A DNA stretch of 24,275 bases from NCBI GenBank assembly GCA_964443115.1, contig CAYUBP010000002.1, positions 1-24,275 of the forward strand. The letters run 5' to 3'. The notes beneath the pieces were generated by a model. The model was given only the letters and a program-made list of their open reading frames with translations, had not been told where the DNA came from and did not search any database. This document shows positions 6,270 through 24,275 of the stretch, piece by piece (position 1 is the stretch's first letter; each line of letters opens with the position of its first letter). This DNA is from an uncultured Dehalococcoidales bacterium (GTDB taxonomy: Bacteria; Chloroflexota; Dehalococcoidia; Dehalococcoidales; W111). The translations under genes were made by a program, and so were the position numbers.

Positions 6270-6274
6270 TGCGT

Positions 6275-9603: not shown

Positions 9604-9621
9604 TATTCAAGTATTCAAATT

Positions 9622-9654: not shown

Positions 9655-9687
9655 TCCAATGAGGAATAATACTGAGAGGTGGTCCCG

Positions 9688-10719: not shown

Positions 10720-10736
10720 TTCAAGGGGACAGGTCT

Positions 10737-11066: not shown

Positions 11067-11079
11067 GAACGGGATAGGC

Positions 11080-12351
11080 TTGGCAAATAATCGCCGCTTT
11101 GGCCCGGCAGATTACATCAAGGTCACTGTCTTCGGCTTTGCCCTGGCTGCGCTCTGGAACGGGCTGCACCGCATTATTCTCCCCCTGCGGTTGCAGGACT
11201 TTGTCGCCGAGACCGAGAAGAATACCTACCTGAGCTATCTTCTGGTCGCCGGTCTGGTGCTGGCGATGCTCGTCCAGCCCATAGCCGGGGAGATTAGCGA
11301 CCACTCCAGATTCCGCCGGGGGCGCCGGCGTCCCTTTGTTCTTATCGGCGTTATCGGCGCCATGCTGTTCCTGCCGGGTATAGGGCTGGCAGGCAGCTAT
11401 GCGGCTATCTTCGCCACCTACTGCCTGCTCCAGGTCAGCTCCAACATAGCCCAGGGCCCATACCAGGGCTTTATCCCCGACCTGGTGCCACCGGAGAACA
11501 GGGGGCTGGCTTCGGGGGTAAAGAGCCTGCTGGAGATACTGGGCGGTATTGCCCTGGTGCGGCTGGTGGCTATGTTCATGGACCACTACTCCAGCGGGGA
11601 GGGAGACTACTGGCTCTGGCTCAGCGTGGGCACGCTGGCTGCCGTCCTGCTGGGCACCGCAGTGGCGACCCTCGTCCTGGTCAAAGAGAAACCCTGGGCT
11701 GGCACCGCTCACCTGTCCTTTCCGTCAGCCCTGTACAGGAGCTTCCAGATTGATTTCAGGGTTGACCGTGATTTCGTCTGGTTTCTCGCTTCCCGTCTCC
11801 TTATCTTCATGGCGTTTGCTATCCTGCAGAAGTTTGCCCTTTACTTTATTCAGGACGTCATCGGAATCGCCAATCCGGCGGCGGCAGCCAGCGAGTTGCT
11901 CATCGCCATTGGTATCGGCATGTTGATTATAGTCTATCCCGCCGGGCAGCTATCAGACAGGATAGGCCGTAAGCCACTGGTCATGGCTTCGGGACTCCTC
12001 GGCGCCCTGGCAACGGGGCTGCTCTTCTTCAATCACAGCTACCAGGGCTTGATTTTATCGGGGGCGCTGCTCGGGCTGGCTAACGGGGCTTTCATGAGCA
12101 CTAACTGGGCTCTAGCCGTAGACCTGGCGGCGAAGGGCGAGGAGGCAAGATACCTGGGACTGACCAACATCGCCACCGCCGGGGGTAGCGCCCTGGCGCT
12201 GCTTATCATCGGGCCCGCAATTGATTTCTTTAATGCCCGCAGCTCGAACCTCGGCTACTCAGTCATGCTCGGAGCCTGTTTTGTCTGTTTTATTTCCGGT
12301 TCACTTCTGCTGCTCAGGATAAGAGGGCGGCGTCAGGCTCAACTCACATAG
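11080..12351 (+). CDS. MFS transporter (SLC45-like/MFS_1)
   Basis: About 12 hydrophobic segments, GEISDHSRFRRGRRRPF and GQLSDRIGRK MFS loop motifs. Likely TTG start at 11080 (track start 11053). Confidence 0.9.
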   Translation: MANNRRFGPADYIKVTVFGFALAALWNGLHRIILPLRLQDFVAETEKNTYLSYLLVAGLVLAMLVQPIAGEISDHSRFRRGRRRPFVLIGVIGAMLFLPGIGLAGSYAAIFATYCLLQVSSNIAQGPYQGFIPDLVPPENRGLASGVKSLLEILGGIALVRLVAMFMDHYSSGEGDYWLWLSVGTLAAVLLGTAVATLVLVKEKPWAGTAHLSFPSALYRSFQIDFRVDRDFVWFLASRLLIFMAFAILQKFALYFIQDVIGIANPAAAASELLIAIGIGMLIIVYPAGQLSDRIGRKPLVMASGLLGALATGLLFFNHSYQGLILSGALLGLANGAFMSTNWALAVDLAAKGEEARYLGLTNIATAGGSALALLIIGPAIDFFNARSSNLGYSVMLGACFVCFISGSLLLLRIRGRRQAQLT

Positions 12352-12929
12352 GGCAGCACCAGCTCCCAGCCCCAGACGCTGGCCAGCATCAGCAGTATGT
12401 ATTTCACACTCTTGCCCGTCCAGGTCAAGAGCAGGAACTTCCACATGGGGAAACGCAGGGCGCCGGCGACCACGCCGGCAACATCAAAGGGGAGTACAGG
12501 AGCGGCAGCGAAGATAAAGATGGTCCAGACGCCCCACCTCTTCATCCACCTCTCCACCCGCTCGTACGCCCTGCCCTGCGGCACCGCTTTCCGCCCACTA
12601 TAGCCGACCATGTAGCCGGTCATCTCGCCAAGCGTCCCCCCGGCGGCGCCGACCAGCCCGAGCAACACCGGGTTCAGGGTAGCCACGTAGGGGAAGATTA
12701 CCAGTATGCCGGGCACCGGCAGAATCACCGTGGCGTTGCTGAGCAGGCTGACAACAAAGACACCGAGGTAGCGGTAGTTGCCGAACTGCTCTACCTTCTC
12801 CTGGTCTATCAGGAAGAACAGCCCCACGGAGACGGCGGTGACCGCCAGCAATATTACCAGTGGCACGAGCCTGCTTCTTAGCTGGCTTCCCTTCTGCTCA
12901 CCCTGACTGCTGGCGCTGGCCGTATCCAT
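12339..12929 (-). CDS. VTT domain (DedA/TVP38) membrane protein
   Basis: LPVPG, GGTLGE.TGY.VG and P.LPFDVAG..AG motifs. Convergent 13-bp overlap with the MFS gene. Confidence 0.85.
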   Translation of the reverse strand: MDTASASSQGEQKGSQLRSRLVPLVILLAVTAVSVGLFFLIDQEKVEQFGNYRYLGVFVVSLLSNATVILPVPGILVIFPYVATLNPVLLGLVGAAGGTLGEMTGYMVGYSGRKAVPQGRAYERVERWMKRWGVWTIFIFAAAPVLPFDVAGVVAGALRFPMWKFLLLTWTGKSVKYILLMLASVWGWELVLPYVS

Positions 12930-12973
12930 CTATAGCATTTTAGCACATTCCGGGGCAGAGGTATCCGGCGGCG

Positions 12974-13003
12974 TTGTCTATCAGCCGGATGTCATGCTAT
13001 ACT
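12974..13003 (+). promoter_or_regulatory. tRNA-Glu promoter
   Basis: TTGTCT (12974-12979), 18-bp spacer, extended -10 TGCTATACT ending at 13003, 10 nt before the tRNA. Confidence 0.55.
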
Positions 13004-13013
13004 TTGTCAGTGT

Positions 13014-13086
13014 GCCCCCATCGTCTAGTGGACTAGGACACTGGCCTTTCAAGCCGGCAACAGCGATTCGAATTCGCTTGGGGGCG
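13014..13086 (+). tRNA. tRNA-Glu (anticodon TTC), CCA not encoded
   Basis: Cloverleaf: acceptor GCCCCCA/TGGGGGC, D stem GTCT/GGAC, anticodon stem CTGGC/GCCGG with loop CT-TTC-AA, T arm AGCGA-TTCGAAT-TCGCT, discriminator G. Confidence 0.96.
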
Positions 13087-13108
13087 CTTACTATATTTTA
13101 AAGCGCCC
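13082..13108. terminator. Hairpin between the convergent tRNA and hydrolase genes
   Basis: Perfect 8-bp inverted repeat GGGCGCTT/AAGCGCCC around an 11-nt AT-rich loop. No clear U-tract. Confidence 0.4.
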
Positions 13109-13135
13109 GGCTCAGCCTCTTATAGCAAAAACCGC

Positions 13136-14095
13136 CTACTGCTTGGTGATGGTCAGGACAATGATAGCCACCGCCAGCAAGGCAGCTGACTCGGCGAACT
13201 TTCCTGATTTGTGCGAGGCGAGAAGAGCGCACAGCGTTTCAATACGTCCGGCTGACACCTCAGCCAGGACGGGCGCCGGCTCTGCGGGTACTTCAGCGAC
13301 AGCCGGCTGCCCCTGCCCCAGGAACTTGAACAGCGTCTGCGAGAACTCGTGCCGGCTCTGCCGGTAGACGCTGTGACCGCAGTCTTCAAACACCTGCAGC
13401 CTGCAATCCGGGATGAGGCGGGCGGCTTTATAGGCAGCGCTGACAGGCACTATGTTGTCCTTTGCCCCCCAGACCAGCAGTGTGGGCATCTTAAGGTCAT
13501 AGAGAGAGGCTGATAAATGTGGCTGCCGCCTGAGTGATGCGATGTACCTTCCCATGTCAATCTTAACGGGAGGCAGGGGGTTAATAAAAATTGAGGCAAA
13601 GACCCGTTTTACCACCCAGCCGAGTGCCCTCATCAGGACATGGAGAGACCGGCTGAGCGGCTTGGCCAGCGCCGGCAAAGACACCAGCCTCACCCATAGC
13701 CCAACCTTGGCTCCCAGACCCAAGCTGCTGACAAGAACCAACTTCTCCACCTTTTCCGGGTGCTTTAAGGCGTAGTTCAGGGCGATGCTGCCCCCGATAG
13801 AGTGCCCTACAAGATAGAACCGCTCCAGCCCCAGGCTTTCCACAAAGCCGCCCACGAACTCAACATACTGGGAAAGGTGGAACTGGTCACTAATCGGCTG
13901 GCTGTCGCCATAGCCGGGGAGGTCAGGCAGGTACACGCGGTAATGCCGGGCAAGACCGGCGGCACTATCAAGCCACACGCTGGCTCCTTCGCCGCCGCCA
14001 TGGATGATAACCAGAGGTCTTCCGCCACCACCCACAAAGTAACTGGCATTATACCTGCCCACCCTTATTTCCTGGTGGGACATACTATTCGGCAT
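13136..14095 (-). CDS. Alpha/beta fold hydrolase with C-terminal extension
   Basis: HGGG oxyanion motif, DLPGYG, nucleophile elbow GHSIGG, WGAKD acid and CGH His. Start is ATG 14095 or 14083. Confidence 0.88.
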   Translation of the reverse strand: MPNSMSHQEIRVGRYNASYFVGGGGRPLVIIHGGGEGASVWLDSAAGLARHYRVYLPDLPGYGDSQPISDQFHLSQYVEFVGGFVESLGLERFYLVGHSIGGSIALNYALKHPEKVEKLVLVSSLGLGAKVGLWVRLVSLPALAKPLSRSLHVLMRALGWVVKRVFASIFINPLPPVKIDMGRYIASLRRQPHLSASLYDLKMPTLLVWGAKDNIVPVSAAYKAARLIPDCRLQVFEDCGHSVYRQSRHEFSQTLFKFLGQGQPAVAEVPAEPAPVLAEVSAGRIETLCALLASHKSGKFAESAALLAVAIIVLTITKQ

Positions 14096-14108
14096 ATCTA
14101 CTGCAATT

Positions 14109-14138
14109 ATTATACAGCAAAACGCACATACTATTCAA
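14109..14138 (-). promoter_or_regulatory. Promoter of the hydrolase gene
   Basis: Minus strand TTGAAT (14138-14133), 18-bp spacer, TATAAT (14114-14109). Confidence 0.5.
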
Positions 14139-14165
14139 AAATTCAGCGCGCTGGGTTCTGCTCAT

Positions 14166-14260
14166 TCTTGGTTGTTAGGACATGTCATTGCGAGGAGCGT
14201 AGCGACGAAGCAATCTGATACAAAGAGATTGCTTCGCTCCGCTCGCAATGACAACCAAGA
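14166..14260. repeat. REP/RPE-like long palindromic element, family B copy 2
   Basis: Nested inverted repeats TCTTGGTTGT/ACAACCAAGA, TGTCATTGCGAG/CTCGCAATGACA and CGAAGCAATCT/AGATTGCTTCG. Confidence 0.75.
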
Positions 14261-14292
14261 TTGCGTAAAAGGGCACGCTGGGCTTGGTGTTT

Positions 14293-14321
14293 TTGACATT
14301 GGAGGGTAAAAGTTGTATTAT
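14293..14321 (+). promoter_or_regulatory. Near-consensus sigma70 promoter upstream of mocA
   Basis: TTGACA (14293-14298), 17-bp spacer, TATTAT (14316-14321). Confidence 0.7.
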
Positions 14322-14552
14322 TAGTCTCCCTGAGAGGGGAGGCAAGCCAGGCACGCATATCCGAGACGCTATGCGGGGCAGAGGCGGGGATACCGGCAGT
14401 ATGACCGGGCGGACAGAAGCCGAATAGAAGCCGGGCAGGTATTGCAGTAGTAGCGGGCGGGACATCAGAGCCGGGGCAAAACCGAGCAGGATGAGGGGCA
14501 GGGTCAGCCGGAGTTCCCTCCGGTGGGGAGCCCCGGAGCAGGAGATGATGGG

Positions 14553-15164
14553 ATGAAAGGCAGGGTCCCCTGGATATCAGTAGTACTTCTTGCCGCCGGC
14601 GAATCAAAGCGTATGGGACAGCCCAAGCAGCTAATGCAGCTGGGGAAGACTACTATCCTGGAGCAGTCCATCAGCAATTTCCTCGCCTCCGAGGCAAAGC
14701 AGGTTATCGTGGTGCTGGGACACCGGGCTGAAGATATGGTTGGGCTAGCCAGGGACAAACCGGTTACGATAGTGGTTAACCCAGCCTACCGCCAGGGGAT
14801 GGGCACATCCATAGCCGCCGGGACAGGTTTAATCAGTGATAAAGCGCAGGGGATTATGCTGGCTCTCTGTGAGCAGCCGTTTATCGACCCCGGGACCATC
14901 AATCAGTTGATAGCGACATTTGGCGCCCAGAACAAGGGCATTGTCATCCCGTGCTACGGCAGCCTCCGCGGTCACCCGGTTATCTTCGCCACCAGGTATA
15001 AAGATGAGCTATCAGGACTAACGGGTGACACCGGCGGCAGGCAGATAATCGCCCGCCACCCCGAAGATGTCCTTGAAGTCGCCGTTGCCTGCGAGGGTGT
15101 CATTACTGACATTGATACTCCTGACAGCTATAATCTGGCGCTTGGCAAAATACGCAACAGGTAA
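14553..15164 (+). CDS. mocA: Molybdenum cofactor cytidylyltransferase-like nucleotidyltransferase
   Basis: LLAAGESKRMGQPKQL, NP.Y..GM.TSI, RGHPVIF, GDTGGR and DIDTPD motifs. Directly upstream of the xanthine-oxidase-family cluster. Confidence 0.82.
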   Translation: MKGRVPWISVVLLAAGESKRMGQPKQLMQLGKTTILEQSISNFLASEAKQVIVVLGHRAEDMVGLARDKPVTIVVNPAYRQGMGTSIAAGTGLISDKAQGIMLALCEQPFIDPGTINQLIATFGAQNKGIVIPCYGSLRGHPVIFATRYKDELSGLTGDTGGRQIIARHPEDVLEVAVACEGVITDIDTPDSYNLALGKIRNR

Positions 15165-15199
15165 ACAGGTAAGTTGAAAATTGGGCGAATTTCCCCCAA

Positions 15200-15228
15200 A
15201 ATATAGCTAATATAGCTGTAGTATAGTT
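15200..15228 (+). promoter_or_regulatory. Tandem direct repeats upstream of yqeB
   Basis: AATATAGCT (15200-15208), AATATAGCT (15209-15217) and AGTATAGTT (15220-15228). Confidence 0.4.
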
Positions 15229-15275
15229 GTGACCCGCAAGATAGCGGGGAAAAGAATTATCATTGAGGGGGAGAA

Positions 15276-16085
15276 ATGCCTGGTTCTGACATTACCGTGC
15301 TAATCAAGGGGGCCGGAGAAATCGGCAGTGGCGTTGCCCACAGGCTAAGCCAGTGCCGGTTCCGGGTATGCCTCACGGAGTGCCCCCGCCCGCTCGCCGT
15401 ATGCCGGGGTACCGCCTTCTCCGAAGCCGTTTTTGACGGGGAAAAGACCATTGAGGGTATCACCGCAGAGCTTGTGCCGGCATCGGAGACATATCAGGTC
15501 TGGAGCCGGGGGAACATACCCCTGGTTATTGACCCCGACGCAATAGTGATAGGGCAGCTTAAGCCGGACGTAGTGGTTGACGCCATCATGGCGAAGCGGA
15601 ACACCGGTACCAGGATTACCGATGCCCCGCTGGTGATTGGCCTCGGGCCGGGGTTTAGCGCCGGCAGCGACGTCCACGTCGTGGTTGAGACCAGCAACAG
15701 TGAAAAACTCGGCAGAGTGATAAAGCATGGGCAGGCGGAGCCGAACAACGGTACGCCGGTAGCTATCGGGGGGCTCACGCGAGAGAGGGTGGGCTGGGCA
15801 CCCCGGGCGGGAGTGTTTATCTCCCGGCTGGAGCTGGGAGATAGTGTGGTCTCTGGACAGACGGTGGGGTGGGTCGGTGACCTGCCGATGGCGGCACCGT
15901 TAAGCGGCATCCTGCGGGGTCTGCTGCGGAGTGGGTTGGAGGTAGCCAGGGGAGACAAGCTATTTGAGGTTGACCCGGCAAACAGCCGGGACGTCTGCTA
16001 TACTATTAGGGACAAAATGCGCGTAGTTGCCGAAGGCGTTCTGAAGGCAATTACAAACTGGAGCCCGGGGGGTGTTTCATGCTAG
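15276..16085 (+). CDS. yqeB: YqeB/EF2563-family selenium-dependent molybdenum hydroxylase maturation protein
   Basis: IKGAGEIGSGVAHRL, AFSEAVFDG, VVDAIMAKRNTGT, IGLGPGF.AG.D and C-terminal biotinyl-like APLSG.LRG...GDKL.EVDP motifs. Confidence 0.88.
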   Translation: MPGSDITVLIKGAGEIGSGVAHRLSQCRFRVCLTECPRPLAVCRGTAFSEAVFDGEKTIEGITAELVPASETYQVWSRGNIPLVIDPDAIVIGQLKPDVVVDAIMAKRNTGTRITDAPLVIGLGPGFSAGSDVHVVVETSNSEKLGRVIKHGQAEPNNGTPVAIGGLTRERVGWAPRAGVFISRLELGDSVVSGQTVGWVGDLPMAAPLSGILRGLLRSGLEVARGDKLFEVDPANSRDVCYTIRDKMRVVAEGVLKAITNWSPGGVSC

Positions 16086-16879
16086 ACATCTACCAGGAAA
16101 TAACCGGACTGATAGCCAGAGGGGAGCGGGCAGTGCTTGCCACCGTCATCTCCAGCCGCGGCTCGGCGCCAAGAAAAGCCGGCTCCAAGATGCTCGTTAA
16201 GAGGGACGGCAGCTCTATCGGCAGCATCGGCGGCGGGGGCATTGAGGAGCAGATGAGGCAGAAGGCTATGGAGATAATGGACTCGGGTGCGCCGCAGGTA
16301 GTCCACTTTGACCTCTCCGGAAGCGGAGAGGAAGCAGCCATGATTTGCGGCGGGCAGGTGGACGTATTCATCGAGCCAATAGTGCCACCGGAGACGCTCT
16401 ATCTCTTCGGCGCCGGGCATATCTCCTACGGCACGGCGATAATCGGCAAGATGCTGGGGTTCCGGGTAGTGGTAATAGACCCGCGACCGGAATATACCAG
16501 CGCTGAGAGGCTCCCCGGTGCCGACCGGCTGCTCGTGGAAGACTACGACGACGCCTTCCCAAAACTGGACATAGACGAAAACAGCTACATCGTCATCTAC
16601 ACCCCGGGGCATGTCCTTGATGAGCAATGCCTCCAGTCTGCCGTCGGCACCAGAGCCAGGTATATCGGGATGATTGGCAGCAAGAAGAAGGTTAAGGAGA
16701 TTAAAGACCGCCTCTTAAAGAAGGGAGTAGCCCGCGAGAAGCTGGACAGGGTGCACGCTCCCATCGGGCTGGAAATCGGTGCCGAGACGCCGGAGGAGAT
16801 TGCGGTAAGCATACTGGCAGAGATAATCAAGGTGAGAAGAGCCAGCATGGACAGCGGACATAAGGGGGCGACGGGGTAA
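16079..16879 (+). CDS. xdhC: XdhC/CoxI-family Moco insertion chaperone
   Basis: GSAPRKAGSKM, GSIGGG, MICGG, FGAGHI, YIGMIGSKKK and APIGL.IGAETPEEIAVSI motifs. Confidence 0.93.
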   Translation: MLDIYQEITGLIARGERAVLATVISSRGSAPRKAGSKMLVKRDGSSIGSIGGGGIEEQMRQKAMEIMDSGAPQVVHFDLSGSGEEAAMICGGQVDVFIEPIVPPETLYLFGAGHISYGTAIIGKMLGFRVVVIDPRPEYTSAERLPGADRLLVEDYDDAFPKLDIDENSYIVIYTPGHVLDEQCLQSAVGTRARYIGMIGSKKKVKEIKDRLLKKGVAREKLDRVHAPIGLEIGAETPEEIAVSILAEIIKVRRASMDSGHKGATG

Positions 16880-17101
16880 ATGGCAAAGACGGGGATGATA
16901 TGCCCCTTCTCGGGCAGGTTGTGCGAAGACTGCGCCTCTTACCGCGGCAGGCATTACTTCCTGTGCTTCTGCGAAGCGTACCGGGGATACATGAAGACGG
17001 CAGACAAAAAACGTAAGGCAAAACCAAACGGGAAATTTGAGATGCCAGTGATAAAAATCAGCCGGGACATATTTGATGCGGCGTTAAAAGATATTAAATA
17101 A
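16880..17101 (+). CDS. 73-aa Cys-rich hypothetical protein
   Basis: ATG directly after the xdhC stop (TAAATG). N-terminal CPFSGRLCEDC..YRGRHYFLCFC. Confidence 0.75.
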   Translation: MAKTGMICPFSGRLCEDCASYRGRHYFLCFCEAYRGYMKTADKKRKAKPNGKFEMPVIKISRDIFDAALKDIK

Positions 17102-17110
17102 GGAGGTCTC

Positions 17111-17569
17111 ATGCTAATTGAAGGCAAATTTACGATGAAGGCGCCGAGGCAGGTGGTATGGGACTTCGTTATTGAACCAGGGACACTGGCTTCCTGCATC
17201 CCCGGTGCTGAGAAGATGGAAGCCGTTGACGACAATACCTGGGAAGGTGTGGTCATACAGAAGGTCGGGCCCATATCGGTGAAGCTCCACTTCACCCAGA
17301 CCCTCGTGGAAATTGACCCCCCTAAACACGTGAAAGCCATCGGCAAGGGTGCTGACGTGACCAAGGCGGGCACCTTCTCCCAAGAGACCATAGTTAACCT
17401 GAATGAAATCTCCCCAAACGAAACTGAGGTAGCATATACCTCCAATGTCAGCATGGTGGGCAAGCTGGCTACCTTTGGCGATAGGATAATGCGAGCCAAG
17501 GTCAAGTCGGTCGGTGAAGAGTTCACCAGGAACCTGCAGGAGAAACTCCGGAGCAAGATCGGCGGCTAG
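17111..17569 (+). CDS. coxG: CoxG/SRPBCC family protein
   Basis: F...APRQ.VWDF....LASCIPG, KVGPI and GKLATFG.RI motifs. AGGAGG SD. Confidence 0.88.
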   Translation: MLIEGKFTMKAPRQVVWDFVIEPGTLASCIPGAEKMEAVDDNTWEGVVIQKVGPISVKLHFTQTLVEIDPPKHVKAIGKGADVTKAGTFSQETIVNLNEISPNETEVAYTSNVSMVGKLATFGDRIMRAKVKSVGEEFTRNLQEKLRSKIGG

Positions 17570-17588
17570 ATGATAACGGAGGGTCAAG

Positions 17589-18488
17589 ATGATAAGAGAC
17601 TTTGAATACTTTGGCCCCAAGACACTAAAAGAAGCTCTTGCCCTGCTGGACAAATATCGGGATGAATACAAGGTAATCTGCGGCGGGCAGTCGCTGCTCA
17701 TCCTGATGCGGCAAGGGCTGGTTGCCCCCGAGCACCTGATTGACATCAAGGGCATAACCGAGCTGAGCTACATCAAGCCCGACGCTAAGAAGGGAATCAG
17801 GATCGGTGCCCTGACCACGCACCGGACGATAGAAAAATCGGCGGTGATAAAGAAGGGCTTTGCCGTCCTCGCCGGGATGGAACGGCGGCTAGCCTCAATC
17901 CAGACCCGGAACTGGGGAACCATTGGCGGCAACCTGTGCCACGGCGACCCGGCGGGAGACCCGGCGCCGGTGCTGATGGCGATGGGTGCCAGCCTGACCA
18001 TGGCCAGCGTAAACGGTACAAGAACCATGCCGGTTGAAGACTTCTTTCTGGACTACTTTGAGACGGCGCTGGAACCCGGGGAGTTGCTTACCGAGATTCA
18101 GGTACCTGCGCCGGCACCTCGTACCGGCACCGCCTACACCAAGTTCAACATCATCCAGAGTGACATGGCGACGGTAGGCGTCGCAGTATCAATTACCCTG
18201 GGCTCAGGCGACGGCGTCTGCAGTGATTGCCGGATAGCGCTGGGGGCGGCGGCACCGACCCCCATGAGAGCTAAAGATGCAGAGAAGTCACTCAAAGGCA
18301 AGCAGATTACGGAAAGCCTGCTCAAAAAAGCCGGGGAGATAGCTTCTACCGAGGCACAGCCAATAACCGATATCCATGCCTCAGACGACTACCGGAGAGA
18401 GCTGGTCAGGGTACTGGTAAAACGGGTCGGCCTGGAAGCCTTAGCCCGGGCTAAAGCTCAGGCTCATGAAGGAGGTCCCATAGCATGA
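17589..18488 (+). CDS. Xanthine-oxidase-family FAD-binding (medium) subunit
   Basis: P.TLKEAL, GGQSL, IGALTTH, RNWGTIGGNL, D.APVL and DIHAS..YR motifs. No [4Fe-4S] insertion. Confidence 0.93.
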   Translation: MIRDFEYFGPKTLKEALALLDKYRDEYKVICGGQSLLILMRQGLVAPEHLIDIKGITELSYIKPDAKKGIRIGALTTHRTIEKSAVIKKGFAVLAGMERRLASIQTRNWGTIGGNLCHGDPAGDPAPVLMAMGASLTMASVNGTRTMPVEDFFLDYFETALEPGELLTEIQVPAPAPRTGTAYTKFNIIQSDMATVGVAVSITLGSGDGVCSDCRIALGAAAPTPMRAKDAEKSLKGKQITESLLKKAGEIASTEAQPITDIHASDDYRRELVRVLVKRVGLEALARAKAQAHEGGPIA

Positions 18489-18964
18489 AGAAAGAGCTTA
18501 AGCTCACAGTAAATGGCCAGCCTTATGAACTGTCCATTAACCCCAAGACTCTCCTGGTTGAGGTACTGAGAGACCACCTGGGGCTCACCGGCACCAAGCG
18601 GGGCTGTAGCGACAGCGCCTGCGGTGCCTGTACTGTGATGCTCAACGGGATGGCGGTCAAGTCATGCTCGGTGCTGGCGGTCCAAGCCGATGGTTGCCAG
18701 GTCACCACCGTTGAGGGCCTGGCAGAAAATAATGAGCTCACCCCGCTACAGAAAGCCTTCCTTGACCATGGCGCCTATCAGTGCGGTTTCTGTACCTCGG
18801 GAATGCTGATGGCGACTACGGCGCTACTGGAGGAGAACGCTAGCCCCACCAAGGAGGAAATAAAAGAGGGTATTGACGGCAATATCTGCCGGTGCACAGG
18901 CTACAACAGTATTGTCCGGGCCGTAACCGATGTGGTCAAGGGTGTGTACAAGGAGGAGAAATGA
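18485..18964 (+). CDS. Xanthine-oxidase-family 2x[2Fe-2S] (small) subunit
   Basis: GTKRGCSDSACGACTV...SC, QCGFCTSG and CRCTGY. ATGA overlaps at both ends. Confidence 0.95.
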   Translation: MKKELKLTVNGQPYELSINPKTLLVEVLRDHLGLTGTKRGCSDSACGACTVMLNGMAVKSCSVLAVQADGCQVTTVEGLAENNELTPLQKAFLDHGAYQCGFCTSGMLMATTALLEENASPTKEEIKEGIDGNICRCTGYNSIVRAVTDVVKGVYKEEK

Positions 18965-21234
18965 GCAAGTTCTCAGTAGTCGGTACACGCGTACATAATG
19001 TTGACGGGCCGGAGAAAGTGACCGGCAGCGCCCGCTATACTTTTGATATGGTGCTACCCGGTATGCTATACGGTAAAATCCTGCGGAGCCCGTACCCCCA
19101 CGCCAGGATTCTTAACATTGACACCAGCAAGGCAGAGCAACTGACCGGGGTTAAGGCGGTGGTCACCGGCAAGGACACGCTGGGGCACAAGCAGGGTATC
19201 TGGCGGCGTTTCCCCGAGCTCTGTGACGAGCAAATCCTCTGCCGGGATAAAGCCCGCTTTATTGGCGACCCGGCGGCGGCAGTGGCAGCGATTGACGAGT
19301 CCACCGCCGAAGAGGCGCTGGACCTGATTGAGGTTGAATACGAACCGCTGCCAGCCGTATTTGACCCCATGGACGCCATTAAAGAGGACGCCCCCCAGAT
19401 TCATGACGGTGTGGAGCTTAATATCAACGTCACCCGCCACATTGAGTGGGGCGATGTTGATGAGGCATTCAAACAGTGCGACCATATCAGAGAGGACTAC
19501 TTCAAGTGCTCGTCACAGGCTCACGTCTGCATGGAGACCCACTGCGCTCTCGCCAGCTTCAGCTATGACAGCAAACTCACGGTGTGGACTTCAACCCAGT
19601 GCTCATACTACATCCAGGCTCTGCTGGCAGACATGCTGGGCTTGAGAGAGGGTGACATCAGGGTAATCAAGCCCCACACCGGCGGCGGCTTCGGCAGCAA
19701 GTTCGAGCTGGACTCAGCCCAGTTCTGCGCCTCGCTGCTGTCCATGAAGCTGTGCAAGCCGGTGAAGATAGTCCTCAGCCGCGAGGAGGAGTTTACGGCT
19801 ACCAAGCGGCGGACGCCGATGTACTACGCCATTAAGCTCGGCGCCAAGAAGGACGGCACCCTGCTGGCAAAAGAGGTCCGCGTCATCAGCAACGGCGGTG
19901 CCTACACCGGCATGGGGGCGACCGCCCTCTACCTCACCGGCTTCTTCTCATCATTCCCGTACAAGTACCCCAACTATCGTTATGATGGCTACCGGGTCTA
20001 CACCAACACCGAGCCGACATCAGCCATGCGCGGCTTCGGCGCCCCGCAATCAACATTTGTTGGCGAGTCCCAGATAGACATGATGGCGGAAGACCTGGGG
20101 ATAGACCCGATTGAAATCCGGCGTAAGAACGGCATGACCCCCAACTACGTGGTACCGGGTCAGGCCGTTATCCAGAGCTGCGGGCTGCACCAGTGCCTGG
20201 ACGCCATTGAGAAGCACATCAAGGAGCGGGGCAAGCTACCTCCCAACCACGGTATTGGTGTCTCCGCTTACGGGTTCATGTCTGGCGGCATCTTTAACTG
20301 GTTTGATACCCCCTACGCCTTCTCCGCAGCCCTGGTCAGGATAAACGTTGACGGCAAGGTTGACCTGTTCACCGGAGCCTGTGACATCGGCCAGGGCTCC
20401 AATACAACGCTGAGCATGATATGCGCCGAGGAGCTAGGCGTGAGGCTTGAGGACATCAGGATACACGCCGCTGACACCGGCATCTGCCCGGTGGACATTG
20501 GTGCCTGGGGCAGCCGGGAAACGCTGATGGCGGGCAATGCCGTCAAGATGGCAGCTGCCGAAGCCAAGAAACAGCTCCTGGAGTTTGCCGCTGCCAAGCT
20601 GGCACCCAACATCACCTACGAGCTAGACATCAAAGACCGCTGGGTTCACATCGTCAACCGCCCGGAGAGGGGTGTCTCCTACTACGACATCGTCAAAGAC
20701 GCAATCAGAGCCAAGGAAGGGGAGGCTATTATCGGGCGCGGGCACTATACCCCGCCCAGCGGCAAATTCGGCATGATTTCCCCGGCTTACAGCTTTGGCG
20801 TTCAGGCTGCCGAGGTTGAAGTAGACCCGGAGACAGGCAGGTACAAGCTGATAAACGTGACCACCGCCCATGAGAGCGGCACGGTCATTAACCCGGTGGG
20901 CATAGAAGGGCAGCTGGAAGGGGCAATCATGATGGCTGGCGGCTACGGCTACTGCGAGGACCTGCCCATGGACGAGGGCAAGATTCTCAACCCCTCCATC
21001 GCCGACTACAAGCTTATCCGCTCCATGGACATGCCGGAGACCAATATTCTGGCGATTGACACCTACGAACCCGAGGGACCGTTCGGCGCCAAAGAGGCTG
21101 GCGAAGGGCTCACCAATCCCACCGCCGGCGCCATCGGTAATGCGGTGTACAAAGCCGCCGGCGTGAGAATCTACGACCTGCCAATAACACCGGAGAAGGT
21201 CCTCAAGGCACTGAAGGAGAAGAGGGGCAAATAG
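18961..21234 (+). CDS. Xanthine-oxidase-family molybdopterin-binding (large) subunit, HcrA-like
   Basis: KVTGSARY, GGGFGSK, AMRGFGAPQ, DIGQGSNT, GQLEG and GAKEAGE motifs. True start is ATG 18961. Confidence 0.93.
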   Translation: MSKFSVVGTRVHNVDGPEKVTGSARYTFDMVLPGMLYGKILRSPYPHARILNIDTSKAEQLTGVKAVVTGKDTLGHKQGIWRRFPELCDEQILCRDKARFIGDPAAAVAAIDESTAEEALDLIEVEYEPLPAVFDPMDAIKEDAPQIHDGVELNINVTRHIEWGDVDEAFKQCDHIREDYFKCSSQAHVCMETHCALASFSYDSKLTVWTSTQCSYYIQALLADMLGLREGDIRVIKPHTGGGFGSKFELDSAQFCASLLSMKLCKPVKIVLSREEEFTATKRRTPMYYAIKLGAKKDGTLLAKEVRVISNGGAYTGMGATALYLTGFFSSFPYKYPNYRYDGYRVYTNTEPTSAMRGFGAPQSTFVGESQIDMMAEDLGIDPIEIRRKNGMTPNYVVPGQAVIQSCGLHQCLDAIEKHIKERGKLPPNHGIGVSAYGFMSGGIFNWFDTPYAFSAALVRINVDGKVDLFTGACDIGQGSNTTLSMICAEELGVRLEDIRIHAADTGICPVDIGAWGSRETLMAGNAVKMAAAEAKKQLLEFAAAKLAPNITYELDIKDRWVHIVNRPERGVSYYDIVKDAIRAKEGEAIIGRGHYTPPSGKFGMISPAYSFGVQAAEVEVDPETGRYKLINVTTAHESGTVINPVGIEGQLEGAIMMAGGYGYCEDLPMDEGKILNPSIADYKLIRSMDMPETNILAIDTYEPEGPFGAKEAGEGLTNPTAGAIGNAVYKAAGVRIYDLPITPEKVLKALKEKRGK

Positions 21235-21258: not shown

Positions 21259-21477
21259 ATGAGCTATCACTGTCCGGTTTGTAATAAGGTTTCAAGCACC
21301 GCTTACGACCTTGCCCGCCACATGATTGGGCGGGGAGACAAGGTGCACCGGGACTGGATTAACTCTAAAGACCTAAAGTACTCCGAGTTGCTGGCATTGC
21401 AGTTCAAGTCCTTTGGCGGCGAGGGCTATAAAGCCCTGGCCAAGGTGCTGGAAGAGGAGACCAAGGTTGAAGACTAG
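21259..21477 (+). CDS. 72-aa C2H2-like zinc-finger microprotein
   Basis: AGGAGG SD before ATG 21259. Pattern C-x2-C-x12-H-x8-H (CPVC...DLARH...KVH). Confidence 0.75.
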   Translation: MSYHCPVCNKVSSTAYDLARHMIGRGDKVHRDWINSKDLKYSELLALQFKSFGGEGYKALAKVLEEETKVED

Positions 21478-21550
21478 CCCGCCTTTCTAGCGAACATGAT
21501 TGTTGTTTTGTTACCGTTATTATAGCCCAAAATCTTCCCAGGAGGCATCA

Positions 21551-22951
21551 ATGGTTGGTATTGTTTCGTACGGCGCTTACATTCCAAAGTGGCGGCTGAG
21601 CCGGGAGCTGTTGCGGAAGGGGATGAAAGGAGAAAAAGCAGTGGCTGCCCCTGACGAGGACAGTGTTACCATGGCAGTAGCGGCAGCACTGGACTGTCTT
21701 AATGGAACCGACCGCTCGTCCATTGACGGTCTTTTTTTTGCCTCCACAACGGCTACTTACCGTGAGAAGCAGATAGCTACCATAGTAGCAGCGGCGGCTG
21801 ACCTCCGCCGTGATATCATAACCGCTGATTTCGCCAATTCTCTACGCGCCGGTACCGGTGCTCTTAAGGCAGCTATTGATGCCGTTAAGGCGGGCTCGGC
21901 AGAAAAAGTACTGGTCGTCGCCAGTGATGTCCGCCTCGGCGGACCCGGCTCGGAGCAGGAGCTGGAGGTGGGCGACGGAGCGGCAGCGGTAATTGTTGGC
22001 AAGAATGACGTTGCCGTTGAGATTGAAGACAGCTACTCCGTTGCCAATGAGGTCTTTGATGTCTGGAGAGCCGAGGATGACAGGTTCATCCGTGCCTGGG
22101 AAGCCCGCTTCGCCCAGACTGCCGGGCTGTTCAAGGTAGTTCCGGAGGCGGTTGAGGGACTGCTCAAGAAGTCAGGCTGCAAAGCCCAGGACTTTGCTAG
22201 GTTGGTAACCTATGCCCCGAACCCGAGACAGGCGGCGGAGCTGGGCAAGATGCTCGGCTTTGACCCCAGGACACAGATACAGGACTCCATTTTTGACGCC
22301 GTCGGCAACACGGGCACGTCCTACGCACTAATGCTGCTGGTAGCGGCTCTGGAGCAAGCCAATGCCGGCGACCGCTTCATGCTCGCAAGCTACGGGAACG
22401 GCAGCGATGCCTTCTCGCTGCGGGCAACAGAGGCACTGGCGAAGCTCAAGGGGAACCGGCGCGGCGTCGCCGTTCACATTCAGTCAAAGCGCTCGGTCCC
22501 TGATTATGTCACCTATCTTAACTGGCGGAAGCTGATGCCCAGGGGCATGGTGATTAACCAGCTCTACTTCTGGACATATCCCTCAGCGCCGCCAATAAAC
22601 CGGGAGCGGAACCGTATTTACCCGCTGCACGGGACAAAATGCCAGAACTGCGGTAATATCCAGTTCCCCCCGCAGCGGGTGTGCGCCTTCTGTCATACTA
22701 AAGACAGGATGGAGGAAGTACGGCTGTCCGATAAGAATGCCACTCTATTCTCCTTCTCCACCGAGTTTGCCAGCGGGCAGCTTATCGGCATCGTTAACTT
22801 TGAGGGTGGCGGCAGGATATGGTGCAACATAGTTGATGCCAACTATAAAGACCTTGAAATCGGCATGCCCGTAGAGATGAGCTTCAGGGAAGTGCTCTTT
22901 GAAATGGGCATGCATGACTACTACTGGAAAGCGGTACCACGAAGGGCTTAA
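21551..22951 (+). CDS. HMG-CoA synthase/KAS-III-like domain fused to a DUF35 (Zn-ribbon + OB-fold) domain
   Basis: GIVSYGAYIP, DEDSVTMA, GDGAAA, VGNTG and SYGNG motifs. C-terminal KCQNCG..QFPPQRVC..C and IGMPVEM.FR. GGAGG SD before ATG 21551. Confidence 0.88.
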   Translation: MVGIVSYGAYIPKWRLSRELLRKGMKGEKAVAAPDEDSVTMAVAAALDCLNGTDRSSIDGLFFASTTATYREKQIATIVAAAADLRRDIITADFANSLRAGTGALKAAIDAVKAGSAEKVLVVASDVRLGGPGSEQELEVGDGAAAVIVGKNDVAVEIEDSYSVANEVFDVWRAEDDRFIRAWEARFAQTAGLFKVVPEAVEGLLKKSGCKAQDFARLVTYAPNPRQAAELGKMLGFDPRTQIQDSIFDAVGNTGTSYALMLLVAALEQANAGDRFMLASYGNGSDAFSLRATEALAKLKGNRRGVAVHIQSKRSVPDYVTYLNWRKLMPRGMVINQLYFWTYPSAPPINRERNRIYPLHGTKCQNCGNIQFPPQRVCAFCHTKDRMEEVRLSDKNATLFSFSTEFASGQLIGIVNFEGGGRIWCNIVDANYKDLEIGMPVEMSFREVLFEMGMHDYYWKAVPRRA

Positions 22952-22963
22952 GAAGGAGGAGTT

Positions 22964-24151
22964 ATGCCTGGCGTAAAGGATAAAGTAGCTATAATCGGCA
23001 TGGGGTGCACCAGGTTTGACGAGCACTGGGACAAGGACATAAAAGACCTCATCATTGATGCTTGCTGGGAGGCTTTTGATGATGCCGGGGTTGACCCCAA
23101 GGACATCCAGGCTGCTTGGTGGTCCACCATGTGGAACGGTGAGCTGGGGAGGTCTCTCGCATACCCGTTGAAGCTCGGTTTCATACCGATTACCCGCATA
23201 GAAAACAGGTGCGCCAGCGGTCAGGATGCTATCCGCAACGCCGCCTTTGCGGTGGCATGCGGCGCTTATGACCTGGTGCTGGTCTGCGGGGGAGAAAAGC
23301 TCAAGGACATCGGCATGCCCTCCCCCGGGGGAGACCCTTCAACACCCTACACCAGCCGTGTTGAGCCTACCTCTTTCCCTGTAGCCATGTTCGCCCAGCT
23401 CGCGCAGAGGTACTTCCATCACTACGGCATCCCGATTGACAAGGGCAAGGAGATTCTAGGCCGCATCGCCGTAAAGAACCACCATAACGGCGCCCTTAAC
23501 CCCAAAGCCCAGTTCCAGCGTGAGATAACCCTAGAACAGGCAATGAACGCCCCCATCGTTTCCTACCCGCTGGGGCTGTTTGATGCCTGCGGCGTCACCG
23601 ATGGCGCCGCCGCGATGATACTCTGCCGCGCCGATATTGCCGGGAACTTCCGCGACGACTACATCCTGATGAAGGCGGAAGGCATGGCATGCGGGCACTA
23701 CCAGCCCCAGACCGAGGACAACTGGGACCCGTATTACATACAGGAGAACGTAACCGGCTCCAGTATGGCTTATAAAGAAGCCGGCATCACCAACCCGCGG
23801 AAGGAGCTTGACCTCGCCATCGTCCATGATTGCTTCACCATCACCGAGCTGGCGATATACGAAGACCTCGGCTTCAGCGAGCGGGGGAAGGGCCCGGAGG
23901 ACGTGGCAGCGGACACCTTCGCCCTTGACGGCGAGCTGCCGGTCAACACCGACGGCGGTCTGAAGTGCTTCGGGCACCCGATTGGCGCCAGCGGCATCAG
24001 GATGGTCTATGAAGTGTACAAGCAGCTCCAGGGTAAAGCCGGACCGCGGCAGGTCAAGATAAAGAACGGGCTCGGTCTGGCTCATACCTACGGCGGAACC
24101 CCCATAGATAGTGGGACGGGTGCATTTACTATATACGGCACCCGTGACTAG
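22964..24151 (+). CDS. SCP2-type thiolase / acetyl-CoA acetyltransferase
   Basis: ENRCASG (nucleophilic Cys), KNH.NG, DGAAA, HDCF and GHPIGASG motifs. Lacks the terminal CxG of classical thiolases. Confidence 0.9.
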   Translation: MPGVKDKVAIIGMGCTRFDEHWDKDIKDLIIDACWEAFDDAGVDPKDIQAAWWSTMWNGELGRSLAYPLKLGFIPITRIENRCASGQDAIRNAAFAVACGAYDLVLVCGGEKLKDIGMPSPGGDPSTPYTSRVEPTSFPVAMFAQLAQRYFHHYGIPIDKGKEILGRIAVKNHHNGALNPKAQFQREITLEQAMNAPIVSYPLGLFDACGVTDGAAAMILCRADIAGNFRDDYILMKAEGMACGHYQPQTEDNWDPYYIQENVTGSSMAYKEAGITNPRKELDLAIVHDCFTITELAIYEDLGFSERGKGPEDVAADTFALDGELPVNTDGGLKCFGHPIGASGIRMVYEVYKQLQGKAGPRQVKIKNGLGLAHTYGGTPIDSGTGAFTIYGTRD

Positions 24152-24227: not shown

Positions 24228-24275
24228 AGATCGGAAGAGCGTCGTGTAGGGAAAGAGTGTAGGATAGGGTGTGGG
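24228..24275 (+). other. Illumina TruSeq adapter read-through (assembly artefact)
   Basis: AGATCGGAAGAGCGTCGTGTAGGGAAAGAGTGT (24228-24260), then AGGATAGG (reverse complement of i5 index D503 CCTATCCT), then GTGT and G's. Confidence 0.97.

Follow-up and report, generated by a model that had tools for sequence, protein, structure and literature searches.

Organisation of the gene pair

Two genes, here called A and B, lie on the same strand and in the same frame of the window, i.e. the whole stretch of 24,275 nucleotides that was analysed. Each is preceded by a strong Shine-Dalgarno site, and both fit the coordinates given in the preliminary description. We place the start of gene A at ATG 21551 and not at the upstream TTG 21500, because the family consensus opens MVGIxSYGAYIP. 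As read from the sequence, genes A and B are closely coupled and co-transcribed. Downstream of gene B the contig has an adapter-truncated end.

Table 1. Features of the locus of genes A and B (positions in the window)
Feature	Position	Strand	Description or basis
Shine-Dalgarno of gene A, AGGAGG	21540..21545	+	5 nt upstream of ATG 21551; read from sequence
Gene A	21551..22951 (stop codon 22949-22951)	+	466 aa, HMGS-fold domain fused to DUF35
HMG-CoA-synthase/KAS-III-fold domain, predicted pseudoenzyme, gene A aa 1-330	21551..22540	+	PDB-sequence alignment, AF2 model, Foldseek
T66 of gene A	21746-21748	+	aligned with E82 of HMGS 6esq_I
L98 of gene A	21842-21844	+	aligned with C114 of HMGS 6esq_I
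Y221 of gene A	22211-22213	+	aligned with H238 of HMGS 6esq_I
N253 of gene A (GNTG)	22307-22309	+	aligned with N270 of HMGS 6esq_I
Flexible linker, HMGS-like domain to DUF35, gene A aa 331-354	22541..22612	+	AF2 pLDDT, conservation
DUF35 module (rubredoxin-like Zn ribbon and C-terminal OB fold), gene A aa 355-466	22613..22948	+	Pfam, PDB matches
Shine-Dalgarno of gene B, GAAGGAGG	22952..22959	+	within the 12-nt gap from gene A stop to gene B ATG 22964; read from sequence
Gene B	22964..24151	+	395 aa, archaeal/SCP2-type thiolase, catalytic
Nucleophile Cys83 of gene B	23210-23212	+	in NRCASG
HDCF of gene B, aa 288-291	23825-23836	+
His338 of gene B (GHP)	23975-23977	+	in GHPIGASG, aa 337-344

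Gene A combines an HMGS-like domain without the catalytic triad and a DUF35 module

The single open reading frame of gene A contains, in this order, the Pfam domains ACP_syn_III, ACP_syn_III_C, zf-ChsH2 and OB_ChsH2_C. Among PDB sequences, matches to HMG-CoA synthase (HMGS) and PhlA cover aa 2-326 (PhlA 9skh_A at 1.1e-35, HMGS 6esq_I at 2e-35), and DUF35 proteins match aa 354-463. HMMER residue alignment to 6esq_I, the HMGS of M. thermolithotrophicus (E=2e-35), places T66, L98 and Y221 of gene A at its E82, C114 and H238. The preliminary description of this DNA had claimed that the Cys, His and Glu positions of HMGS are substituted. This is borne out: the strings on which it relied, ASTTATY (aa 64-70), SLRAGT (aa 97-102) and TYAPN (aa 220-224), are all found, and the Methanothermococcus alignment, which could have spoken against the claim, reveals no intact Cys/His/Glu triad. 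Its account of catalytic loss needs one correction, as the Asn that completes the E-C-H-N tetrad, N270, is retained as N253. Judged by these replacements of Glu, Cys and His, the HMGS-like domain is most likely non-catalytic. Since Asn253 and many charged residues are strongly conserved, it may have a residual binding or regulatory function.

The single-chain AF2 model of gene A has a pLDDT of 90 and a pTM of 0.92. Foldseek aligns it with 6esq_I (TMt 0.89), PhlA (0.87-0.88) and MucA (0.83-0.85), so that the predicted fold fits the archaeal HMGS of 6ESQ and PhlA equally well. Confidence is low in the linker alone (pLDDT ~53-69, falling below 50 at aa 338-340), and no other stretch is less conserved in family alignments. 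Beyond it, zf-ChsH2 (aa 361-383) and OB_ChsH2_C (aa 411-446) both exceed the Pfam cut-off, and the CxxC...CxxC of DUF35 is intact as previously described, the Zn-ribbon cysteines of CQNC...CAFC being C364, C367, C378 and C381. This part matches 6esq_E at 2.5e-12 and PhlB 5m3k_B at 1.1e-4.

Could gene A be a working HMG-CoA synthase and the pair feed the mevalonate pathway? Its homologues are mostly named 'hydroxymethylglutaryl-CoA synthase' in source records, and its score is close to the PRK04262 cut-off, which a Bathyarchaeia homologue passes (250). Gene A itself stays below the cut-offs of the NCBIfam HMGS models PRK04262 (235.9<244), TIGR00748 (176.2<353.35) and TIGR01835 (82.2<360.35). 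With Glu, Cys and His changed to T, L and Y it would be incapable of the chemistry, and the same is true of every relative examined. Replacement of the tetrad in archaeal HMGS abolishes HMG-CoA formation, and the fused protein of P. fluorescens makes no HMG-CoA (Liao et al., Nat Commun 2026, PMC12960953). We regard this explanation as practically negligible.

Gene B is a thiolase rather than an acylase

The best PDB match of gene B is the archaeal acetoacetyl-CoA thiolase 6esq_A (E=1.6e-60), and NRCASG, HDCF and GHPIGASG all align with its motifs; the earlier assignment to intact SCP2-type thiolases thus stands. Gene B has the Pfam domains Thiolase_N and Thiolase_C_1. It exceeds the cut-off of NCBIfam PRK06157 (acetyl-CoA acetyltransferase; 486.9 vs 403) and remains under the threshold of the thiolase equivalog NF053570 (287.4 vs 600). 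Its bit score is 208 to the archaeal acetoacetyl-CoA thiolase as compared to 75-79 to PhlC. We consider gene B a true thiolase and not a Friedel-Crafts acylase because it keeps HDxF, which is lost in PhlC and MucB, where the acceptor pocket is rebuilt (PMC12960953). A H-to-Y change in HDxF abolishes activity (PMC12960953).

These data bear on the possibility that A-B is a Friedel-Crafts C-acyltransferase of the PhlABC/MucABC type, transferring acetyl from acetyl-CoA or an acylphenol to a phenolic or tetramic-acid acceptor. The three modules are indeed common to both, gene A resembles PhlA as much as archaeal HMGS in sequence and fold, and its active-site residues are gone as in PhlA and MucA (PMC12960953). 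The acylase explanation is nonetheless very improbable: loss of HDxF defines PhlC and MucB (PMC12960953) and gene B has HDCF, its scores favour the archaeal thiolase, DUF35 is fused in gene A instead of being a separate PhlB, and no PKS or NRPS gene, type III PKS or NRPS-PKS included, was found among all annotated ORFs of the window or in the loci of relatives. Moreover, the characterised fused complex that retains HDxF is a thiolase, an activity absent from the acylases (PMC12960953). What the preliminary description called PhlABC-like therefore applies to the architecture, and its lean towards a C-acyltransferase with phenolic acceptors is not supported, since gene B keeps HDCF and is much nearer to archaeal thiolase than to PhlC.

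A benzoylsuccinyl-CoA thiolase of the BbsAB type was also considered and rejected. The comparison with BbsAB, made previously, fails at both curated thresholds (BbsB 141.7<750, BbsA 24.4<250), and there are no bbs genes nearby.

Relation to known thiolase-DUF35 systems

The closest described counterpart is the PfACAT/HMGS-DUF35 complex of P. fluorescens, likened here by its published description; the proteobacterial fused homologues within reach are 31-33% identical to gene A. Both systems have an HMGS-like domain without Glu/Cys/His and DUF35 in one polypeptide, an adjacent thiolase with catalytic Cys, HDxF and GHx, and no PKS or NRPS neighbours. The P. fluorescens complex cleaves acetoacetyl-CoA, and its formation of acetoacetyl-CoA from acetyl-CoA is undetectable (PMC12960953). 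About 1,000 'orphan' bacterial loci of this type were counted, and the module was termed an evolutionary intermediate without a pathway (PMC12960953). The differences are that gene A keeps the tetrad Asn, while PfACAT/HMGS-DUF35 lacks the tetrad; that the subfamily of the window belongs to Chloroflexota/Dehalococcoidia and reaches into Bathyarchaeia; and that the gene contexts found here point to beta-oxidation and not to the absence of a pathway. Fused homologues from cultured Proteobacteria and Actinobacteria (31-33% identical, full-length) also lack the tetrad. No Pseudomonas entries came up when homologues were searched a second time with a Pseudomonadota MAG as the seed. The novelty implied by the preliminary description does not hold, because the P. 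fluorescens fused dead-HMGS-DUF35 and ACAT pair was expressed and assayed in 2026 (PMC12960953). The architecture and one activity are already published, and A-B is no new kind of system.

The archaeal thiolase/HMGS/DUF35 complex of M. thermolithotrophicus (6ESQ) has the same three modules encoded together. Gene B and the DUF35 part have their best sequence match here, and the HMGS-like part a joint best one, and a shared interfacial CoA site would be the expected organising principle in A-B too. In 6ESQ, unlike in gene A, HMGS is active (E82, C114, H238, N270) and acetoacetyl-CoA is channelled to HMG-CoA for the mevalonate pathway; its DUF35 is a separate 130-aa protein. PhlABC (the P. protegens ATase, PDB 5M3K/5MG5/9SKH) and MucABC (S. 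macacae, PDB 9VBO/9VBT) likewise consist of a non-catalytic HMGS-like, a DUF35 and a thiolase-fold module. In contrast to the pair in the window, their three subunits are separate and encoded in type III PKS (phl) or NRPS-PKS (muc) clusters, and they show no acetoacetyl-CoA thiolysis; gene B was compared with PhlC by HDxF and bit scores. Complexes with dead HMGS subunits still retain the interfacial CoA chamber.

A further group, BbsAB (PDB 7PXP), Ltp2-ChsH2(DUF35) (PDB 6OK1), S. acidocaldarius KT/DUF35 and IpfDE, shares with A-B an HDxF-type thiolase-fold enzyme and a neighbouring DUF35 partner, which these enzymes need or bind. They act on CoA thioesters, among them benzoylsuccinyl-CoA, steroid side chains and ibuprofen-CoA derivatives, and serve catabolic routes, or an anabolic one in Sulfolobus. 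Their DUF35 partners differ from gene A in having no HMGS-like domain.

Conservation of the pair and of the dead domain

Among the best 120 homologues of gene A (53-91% identity), the Cys column holds L, I or T, the Glu column T or S and the His column Y, A, S, P or D; in 79 homologues from named genomes Cys, Glu and His never occur at these positions. The four zinc cysteines of DUF35 are invariant in the latter set (79/79), and the tetrad Asn is kept in 112/121 close relatives and in 43/79 of this wider set. Of the 66 partner thiolases from named genomes, 63 have the Cys, 64 HDCF and 64 GH. In comparison with a relative of 83% identity, the dead domain has a dN/dS of 0.11, DUF35 one of 0.065 and the thiolase one of 0.068. 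The catalytic substitutions are not decay, because they recur in all 120 closest and 79 named-genome homologues and dN/dS is ~0.11; the dead domain is kept under strong purifying selection.

A gene B homologue directly adjoins the gene A homologue in about 64 of the 73 usable loci, gene A coming first in bacteria and gene B first in Bathyarchaeia. In many genomes there are several A-B paralogues, and a number of Dehalococcoidia have A-B-A-B tandem copies. Pairing of dead-HMGS-DUF35 with a thiolase is very common in uncultured anaerobes.

Genomic neighbourhood

The most frequent neighbours of A-B at 80 named-genome loci are SDR (12), enoyl-CoA hydratase (10), 3-hydroxyacyl-CoA dehydrogenase (9), acyl-CoA dehydrogenase (9), family-III CoA-transferase (8), AMP-forming ligase (7) and ADP-forming acyl-CoA synthetase (6). 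A Deltaproteobacteria contig (65% identity) has the operon hbd-crt-A-B, Bathyarchaeia have hbd-crt-B-A, and in a Chloroflexota relative (65% identity) A-B is followed by a FadB-like fusion. These neighbourhoods narrow the 'unknown substrate' of the preliminary description to short-chain 3-oxoacyl-CoA, towards which they point.

SDR being the commonest neighbour (12 loci) and the occurrence of the family in Bathyarchaeia could also fit a mainly biosynthetic (Claisen) role, in which DUF35 would recruit a ketoacyl-CoA reductase and a dehydratase and the dead HMGS would stand in the place of a former downstream enzyme. There is a precedent: around the ketothiolase/DUF35 pair of S. acidocaldarius, an SDR reductase and a MaoC dehydratase assemble into a complex that drives condensation and was proposed as an archaeal fatty-acid synthase (bioRxiv 2024.07.05.601840). 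However, formation of acetoacetyl-CoA from acetyl-CoA was undetectable with the characterised fused complex (PMC12960953). The acyl-CoA dehydrogenases, CoA ligases/transferases and NAD-type 3-hydroxyacyl-CoA dehydrogenases nearby are typical of degradation, and an enoyl-CoA reductase of the archaeal FAS type was not seen beside A-B in this lineage. We find the biosynthetic direction improbable.

In the window itself, the genes immediately upstream of A-B on the same strand are not beta-oxidation genes. They form an XDH-family molybdenum hydroxylase operon (MocA, YqeB, XdhC, CoxG, FAD, 2Fe-2S and Mo subunits and a small Zn-finger ORF), an arrangement preserved in two relatives. A-B might thus be a specialised thiolase tied to this hydroxylase, which would cleave or form a C-C bond of an aromatic, heterocyclic or unusual acyl-CoA intermediate in a BbsAB- or IpfDE-like manner, and would not act on acetoacetyl-CoA. 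Distant A-B members do occur in aromatic-CoA catabolic clusters: fused homologues on Variovorax and Rhodococcus plasmids lie amid genes for ring-hydroxylating dioxygenase, AMP-ligase and enoyl-CoA hydratase, resembling the ibuprofen ipfABDEF clusters, whose ipfDE thiolase releases propionyl-CoA (PMC9195938), and pyrogallol-hydroxytransferase-like enzymes adjoin A-B at four loci. It is important to note that the hydroxylase is found beside A-B only in relatives at least 83% identical, where synteny carries little information, and is absent from all 80 named-genome loci and from the relatives of 62-71% identity. Even in this lineage, hbd and crt are a few kb away: in a relative of 84% identity three GlcDEF-like genes separate A-B from hbd and crt downstream, and in our contig this series of genes probably lies beyond the adapter-truncated end. 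In addition, gene B scores above the acetyl-CoA acetyltransferase cut-off and below that of BbsB. A specialised thiolase of this kind is unlikely, though less so than the biosynthetic one.

Proposed function

With a probability of about 0.7, A-B is a heteromeric thiolase in which gene B is catalytic and gene A a non-catalytic partner, the likely reaction being thiolysis of acetoacetyl-CoA or a short 3-oxoacyl-CoA. The earlier proposal of a 'scaffolded thiolase' fits all the evidence, including the modelled fold of gene A (TM 0.87-0.89 to 6ESQ HMGS and PhlA). Gene B would be the only catalytic subunit. Its Cys83 would be the nucleophile accepting the acyl group, and the acid-base and oxyanion functions would fall to His288 and Cys290 (HDCF) and to His338 (GHP). 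By analogy with the archaeal thiolase/HMGS/DUF35 complex, PhlABC and MucABC, the two proteins are expected to form a physical complex, in which the DUF35 'staple' would clamp the thiolase dimer to the dimer of HMGS-like domains. The latter would provide one wall of an interfacial CoA-binding chamber and stabilise the thiolase without doing chemistry, and would be retained for these reasons. The CoA-dependent thiolysis, reversible in principle, would be the last step of beta-oxidation or of a butyrate-type route that also involves 3-hydroxyacyl-CoA dehydrogenase and enoyl-CoA hydratase. We infer short-chain 3-oxoacyl-CoA as the substrate. Substrate specificity may differ between subfamilies, since there are several paralogues per genome and distant members in aromatic-CoA clusters.

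A wider interpretation is possible, and we offer it tentatively. A-B could be an ancient type of thiolase, under strong selection and in wide use for beta-oxidation or short-chain acyl-CoA in uncultured anaerobes (Dehalococcoidia, Desulfobacterota, Bathyarchaeia), and not a pathway-less intermediate. The pseudo-HMGS would be an obligatory structural half of the CoA/acyl chamber that has diversified with the thiolase by repeated tandem duplication (up to three or more pairs per genome) and sets substrate specificity. If this is true, the substrate in the present lineage could be linked to the adjacent molybdenum hydroxylase.

Implications

Thousands of proteins of the gene A type carry the name 'HMG-CoA synthase' in public records, and one curated equivalog model, NCBIfam PRK04262, passes some members with a dead triad. 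A step of the mevalonate pathway may therefore be inferred in error when the metabolism of Chloroflexota, Desulfobacterota and Bathyarchaeia is reconstructed. For enzymology, the pair clearly exemplifies a pseudoenzyme domain that partners an active enzyme and is subject to strong purifying selection (dN/dS ~0.1); completion of the CoA site, stability or specificity are candidate reasons why the thiolase needs the dead domain. In Dehalococcoidia multiple paralogous A-B pairs are found beside acyl-CoA-processing genes, and the A-B module is probably a main type of thiolase by which organic acids and fatty acids are turned over in anoxic sediments and aquifers.

Results

Gene A (the fused HMGS-like pseudoenzyme domain and DUF35) and gene B (the adjoining thiolase) lie on one strand and in one reading frame, and their coordinates agree with the preliminary description. 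Both genes have a strong Shine-Dalgarno sequence. That of gene A, AGGAGG, stands 5 nt ahead of the ATG; that of gene B, GAAGGAGG, is found within the 12-nt gap between the genes, ahead of the ATG. A longer ORF for gene A, starting from a TTG at 21500, was rejected because all relatives start with MVGIxSYGAYIP. The contig end is Illumina TruSeq adapter (AGATCGGAAGAGCGTCGTGTAGGGAAAGAGTGT...), an assembly artefact, which accounts for the window stopping 124 bases past gene B. Translation of the adapter gives spurious peptides of the PYTTLFRS/SLHDALPI type, which are present in many database records.

Features of the window and of related loci
Feature	Position	Strand	Remarks
Molybdenum-related region outside the operon	2308-4184	-	
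Low-GC island	5898-6796	-	GC 0.44 vs 0.54-0.61 in surroundings
123-aa ORF	5898-6269	-	adjoins Panacea ORF; no Pfam match
SocA/Panacea antitoxin-domain ORF	6275-6796	-	within low-GC island
XDH-family molybdenum hydroxylase operon	14523-21234	+	MocA, YqeB, XdhC, CoxG, FAD, 2Fe-2S and Mo subunits
Small ORF between Mo large subunit and gene A	21259-21477	+	72 aa counted from Met8
Gene A	21551-22951	+	466 aa
Gene B	22964-24151	+	395 aa
TruSeq adapter	24229-24275		
Close relative L093, genes 3' of A-B	11797-17977		GlcD/GlcF/GlcE-like, then 3-hydroxyacyl-CoA dehydrogenase and enoyl-CoA hydratase
Close relative L001, genes 3' of A-B	12751-16819		listed together with L093
Bathyarchaeia L007, fused homologue	7992-9413		JAWBZV010000008.1
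Bathyarchaeia L007, second thiolase region	2260-4935		thiolase, DUF35-like ORF, oxidoreductase
L091 (Variovorax sp. SRS16 plasmid 3)	2651-12811		fused homologue and thiolase, ring-hydroxylating dioxygenase alpha/beta, several enoyl-CoA hydratases
L092 (Rhodococcus qingshengii pdjl-6-4)	1-11583		fused homologue and thiolase, dioxygenase alpha/beta, several enoyl-CoA hydratases, AMP-ligase

According to Pfam, gene A consists of KAS-III/HMGS-type N- and C-subdomains followed by a ChsH2-type zinc ribbon and OB fold, i.e. DUF35. Judged by sequence, residues 2-326 match PhlA (9skh_A, 1.1e-35; 5m3k_A, 4.8e-33) and the HMG-CoA synthase of M. thermolithotrophicus (6esq_I, 2e-35) equally well, and residues 354-463 match the archaeal DUF35 (6esq_E, 2.5e-12) and PhlB (1.1e-4). 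The motifs reported earlier for the catalytic positions (ASTTATY, SLRAGT and TYAPN) are all present, as is the intact CxxC...CxxC (C364, C367, C378, C381). In the alignment, E82, C114 and H238 of HMGS correspond to T66, L98 and Y221 of gene A, and the tetrad Asn is kept (N270 = N253). Gene A stays under the curated HMGS cut-offs (PRK04262, 235.9 < 244; TIGR00748, 176.2 < 353). With 88 family sequences as input, AlphaFold2 gives a confident model (pLDDT 90, pTM 0.92) whose only uncertain stretch is the inter-domain linker, residues 331-345. Foldseek ranks the archaeal HMGS 6ESQ/6ET9 first (TM 0.89 on target), followed by PhlA (0.87-0.88) and then MucA (0.83-0.85).

Gene B is an archaeal/SCP2-type thiolase (Thiolase_N and Thiolase_C_1) that exceeds the cut-off of the NCBIfam model PRK06157 'acetyl-CoA acetyltransferase' (486.9 > 403) and falls under the thresholds for BbsB (141.7 < 750) and the M. 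thermolithotrophicus thiolase equivalog (287.4 < 600). Its closest solved relative is the archaeal thiolase 6esq_A (1.6e-60, 208.6 bits); BbsB gives 134.9 bits and PhlC 75-79 bits. The thiolase had been described as intact, and alignment bears this out: the nucleophile C83 (NRCASG), HDCF (288-291) and GHP (H338) are in register with 6esq_A.

Homologues of gene A number more than 5,000. Residue columns were read in the best 120 (53-91% identity), each of which, at about 466 aa, has the length of the fusion; L/I/T occupy the Cys column, T/S the Glu column and Y/A/S/P/D the His column. Scanning a single genome per species yielded 80 loci, mostly from Dehalococcoidia/Chloroflexota, the remaining ones from Bathyarchaeia, Desulfobacterales, Syntrophaceae, Nitrospinae/Nitrospirales, Actinomycetes, Binatia and Myxococcales. 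In the A-type proteins from these loci (n = 79), Cys, Glu and His are absent from all three columns, and each of the zinc-site cysteines, four in number, is conserved without exception (79/79). The partner thiolases (n = 66) retain Cys in 63, HDCF in 64 and GH in 64 cases. A B-type thiolase directly adjoins A in about 64 of the 73 usable loci, 3' of A in bacteria and 5' of A in Bathyarchaeia. Compared with an 83%-identical relative (dS about 0.9), the HMGS-like domain has a dN/dS of 0.11, DUF35 one of 0.065 and the thiolase one of 0.068. Purifying selection on the 'dead' domain is strong, and the loss of its tetrad residues is not decay. What the preliminary description observed is correct and statistically solid.

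Only environmental Chloroflexota-type sequences came back from a second large search that started from a Pseudomonadota MAG copy. More distant full-length fused homologues (31-33% identity), which likewise have no tetrad, are carried by catabolic plasmids of Variovorax, Rhodococcus, Sphingobium and others; in the Variovorax copy all four cysteines of the zinc ribbon are lost. Two A-B pairs stand close to each other in several Dehalococcoidia/Chloroflexota MAGs: the arrangement is tandem A-B-A-B in three loci (L014, L018, L033) and divergent in L020, and the pairs of L046 and L063 are more widely spaced. In some MAGs (e.g. CAYRGJ01, SOIC01, DAOUMT01) two or three pairs are spread over separate contigs. 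The duplication suggests diversified substrate specificity.

Recurrent neighbours of A-B were collected from the 80 loci with a Pfam check on cluster representatives. Those that recur belong to acyl-CoA processing. SDR proteins are found in 12 loci, enoyl-CoA hydratase in 10, 3-hydroxyacyl-CoA dehydrogenase and acyl-CoA dehydrogenase in 9 each, family-III CoA-transferase in 8, AMP-forming ligase in 7 and ADP-forming acyl-CoA synthetase in 6. Neighbour cluster 2 was discarded, as it consisted of spurious ORFs antisense to A-B in high-GC loci. Context is tightest within the closest subfamily. The order hbd-crt-A-B is seen in a 65%-identical relative and hbd-crt-B-A in Bathyarchaeia (54% identity); another 65%-identical relative has a FadB-like dehydrogenase/hydratase fusion 3' of A-B, and a 63%-identical one a divergent ADP-forming acetyl-CoA synthetase. 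In the 84%-identical relative L093 (JGI Ga0346702_11249781), whose contig is longer, three GlcDEF-like genes (Pfam FAD_binding_4; Fer4_8 and CCG; FAD_binding_4) and then hbd and crt follow A-B. Since our window breaks off in adapter, the same genes probably follow A-B here too, by analogy with this relative. L084 and L089 likewise have FAD_binding_4 and CCG genes close to A-B, which in L084 are adjoined by ETF genes; the Glc-like genes may be a recurrent 2-hydroxyacid-oxidising partner.

Immediately upstream of A-B lies the complete molybdenum hydroxylase operon, in which MocA is a cytidylyltransferase and YqeB (selenium-dependent Mo-cofactor maturation) scores above cut-off; MoeA and MobA genes are found elsewhere in the window. 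The best model for the Mo large subunit is 4-hydroxybenzoyl-CoA reductase alpha, but this identity was rejected because both the large subunit (741.7 < 994.55) and the FAD subunit against HcrB (124.7 < 404.55) fall short of the cut-offs. The small ORF ahead of gene A has a CPVC...H...H C2H2-like zinc-finger pattern with weak DUF5810/zf-C2H2 matches, and shares 88-90% identity with its counterparts in two syntenic relatives (L001, L093), exceeding gene A conservation. A functional link between A-B and the hydroxylase was examined by synteny at rising divergence. Synteny is kept only in relatives at 83-84% identity and is absent from relatives at 62-71% identity and from the 80 genome loci; the hydroxylase is therefore not counted as part of the system.

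The two ORFs of the low-GC island are a candidate Panacea-type toxin-antitoxin pair, probably of horizontal origin.

Discussion

The structure of the Streptococcus MucABC acylase has been solved and set beside PhlABC and the archaeal complex (Liao et al., Nat Commun 2026, PMC12960953). The E-C-H-N tetrad of HMGS is absent from both MucA and PhlA; MucB and PhlC retain CxS and GHx, while HDxF of the archaeal thiolases is missing, and thiolytic activity is absent from these acylases (PMC12960953). The same study collected 1,030 bacterial loci that combine HMGS, ACAT and DUF35 genes, 1,001 of them without secondary-metabolism neighbours. Its P. fluorescens complex has an HMGS domain without the tetrad and an ACAT with Cys, HDxF and GHx. 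From acetyl-CoA this complex made neither HMG-CoA nor acetoacetyl-CoA; acetoacetyl-CoA was cleaved, and the HDxF substitution H294Y left almost no activity. The interfacial CoA chamber persists even with a dead HMGS subunit (PMC12960953).

Compared by published description, our pair has all the sequence-level features of the P. fluorescens ACAT/HMGS-DUF35 type, whereas it does not share the HDxF loss that defines the Phl/Muc acylases. In our literature search the fused dead form was described nowhere besides Liao et al. (PMC12960953). The A-B pair is a Chloroflexota-lineage member of the module characterised in 2026. The preliminary description was right about the architecture and a 'scaffolded thiolase'; its lean towards a PhlABC-type acylase does not agree with the retained HDCF, and the novelty it implied is lost to the 2026 characterisation.

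Neighbouring genes and the P. fluorescens assay combined make thiolysis of acetoacetyl-CoA or another short 3-oxoacyl-CoA the most likely function, although we infer the substrate of this pair from gene context. The reaction is reversible in principle and would be catalysed by gene B. By analogy, A would form a complex with B in which the dead domain serves as a non-catalytic scaffold and CoA-chamber partner.

The module serves various acyl-CoA substrates, as seen from its catabolic-plasmid and pyrogallol-hydroxytransferase-like contexts. The Variovorax and Rhodococcus plasmid loci resemble ibuprofen ipf clusters (aromatic-CoA side-chain cleavage type), whose ipfDE thiolase releases propionyl-CoA (PMC9195938). 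In four loci (L047, L048, L058, L066) of uncultured Actinomycetes and one Dehalococcoidaceae MAG, A-B is directly preceded by several genes for pyrogallol-hydroxytransferase-like molybdopterin enzymes with an AhtL-like first domain, joined by 4Fe-4S subunits in the last three; they may be tied to polyphenol catabolism. Bathyarchaeia L007 has a second thiolase (PRK06064 type), and after it come a free-standing DUF35-like ORF of 142 aa and an F420-dependent luciferase-like oxidoreductase. A canonical thiolase-DUF35-HMGS trio was rejected there, the third ORF not being HMGS. Since L007 encodes both, free DUF35/thiolase and fused pseudo-HMGS-DUF35/thiolase coexist a few kb apart.

The dead-triad fused homologue of L007 scores 250 bits against PRK04262 'HMG-CoA synthase', an equivalog model with a cut-off of 244, and many family members are labelled HMG-CoA synthase by NCBI and JGI. 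For this large fused family such naming is a systematic mis-annotation, which could yield false mevalonate-pathway calls. The remaining point of interest is the strict retention of the dead HMGS domain.
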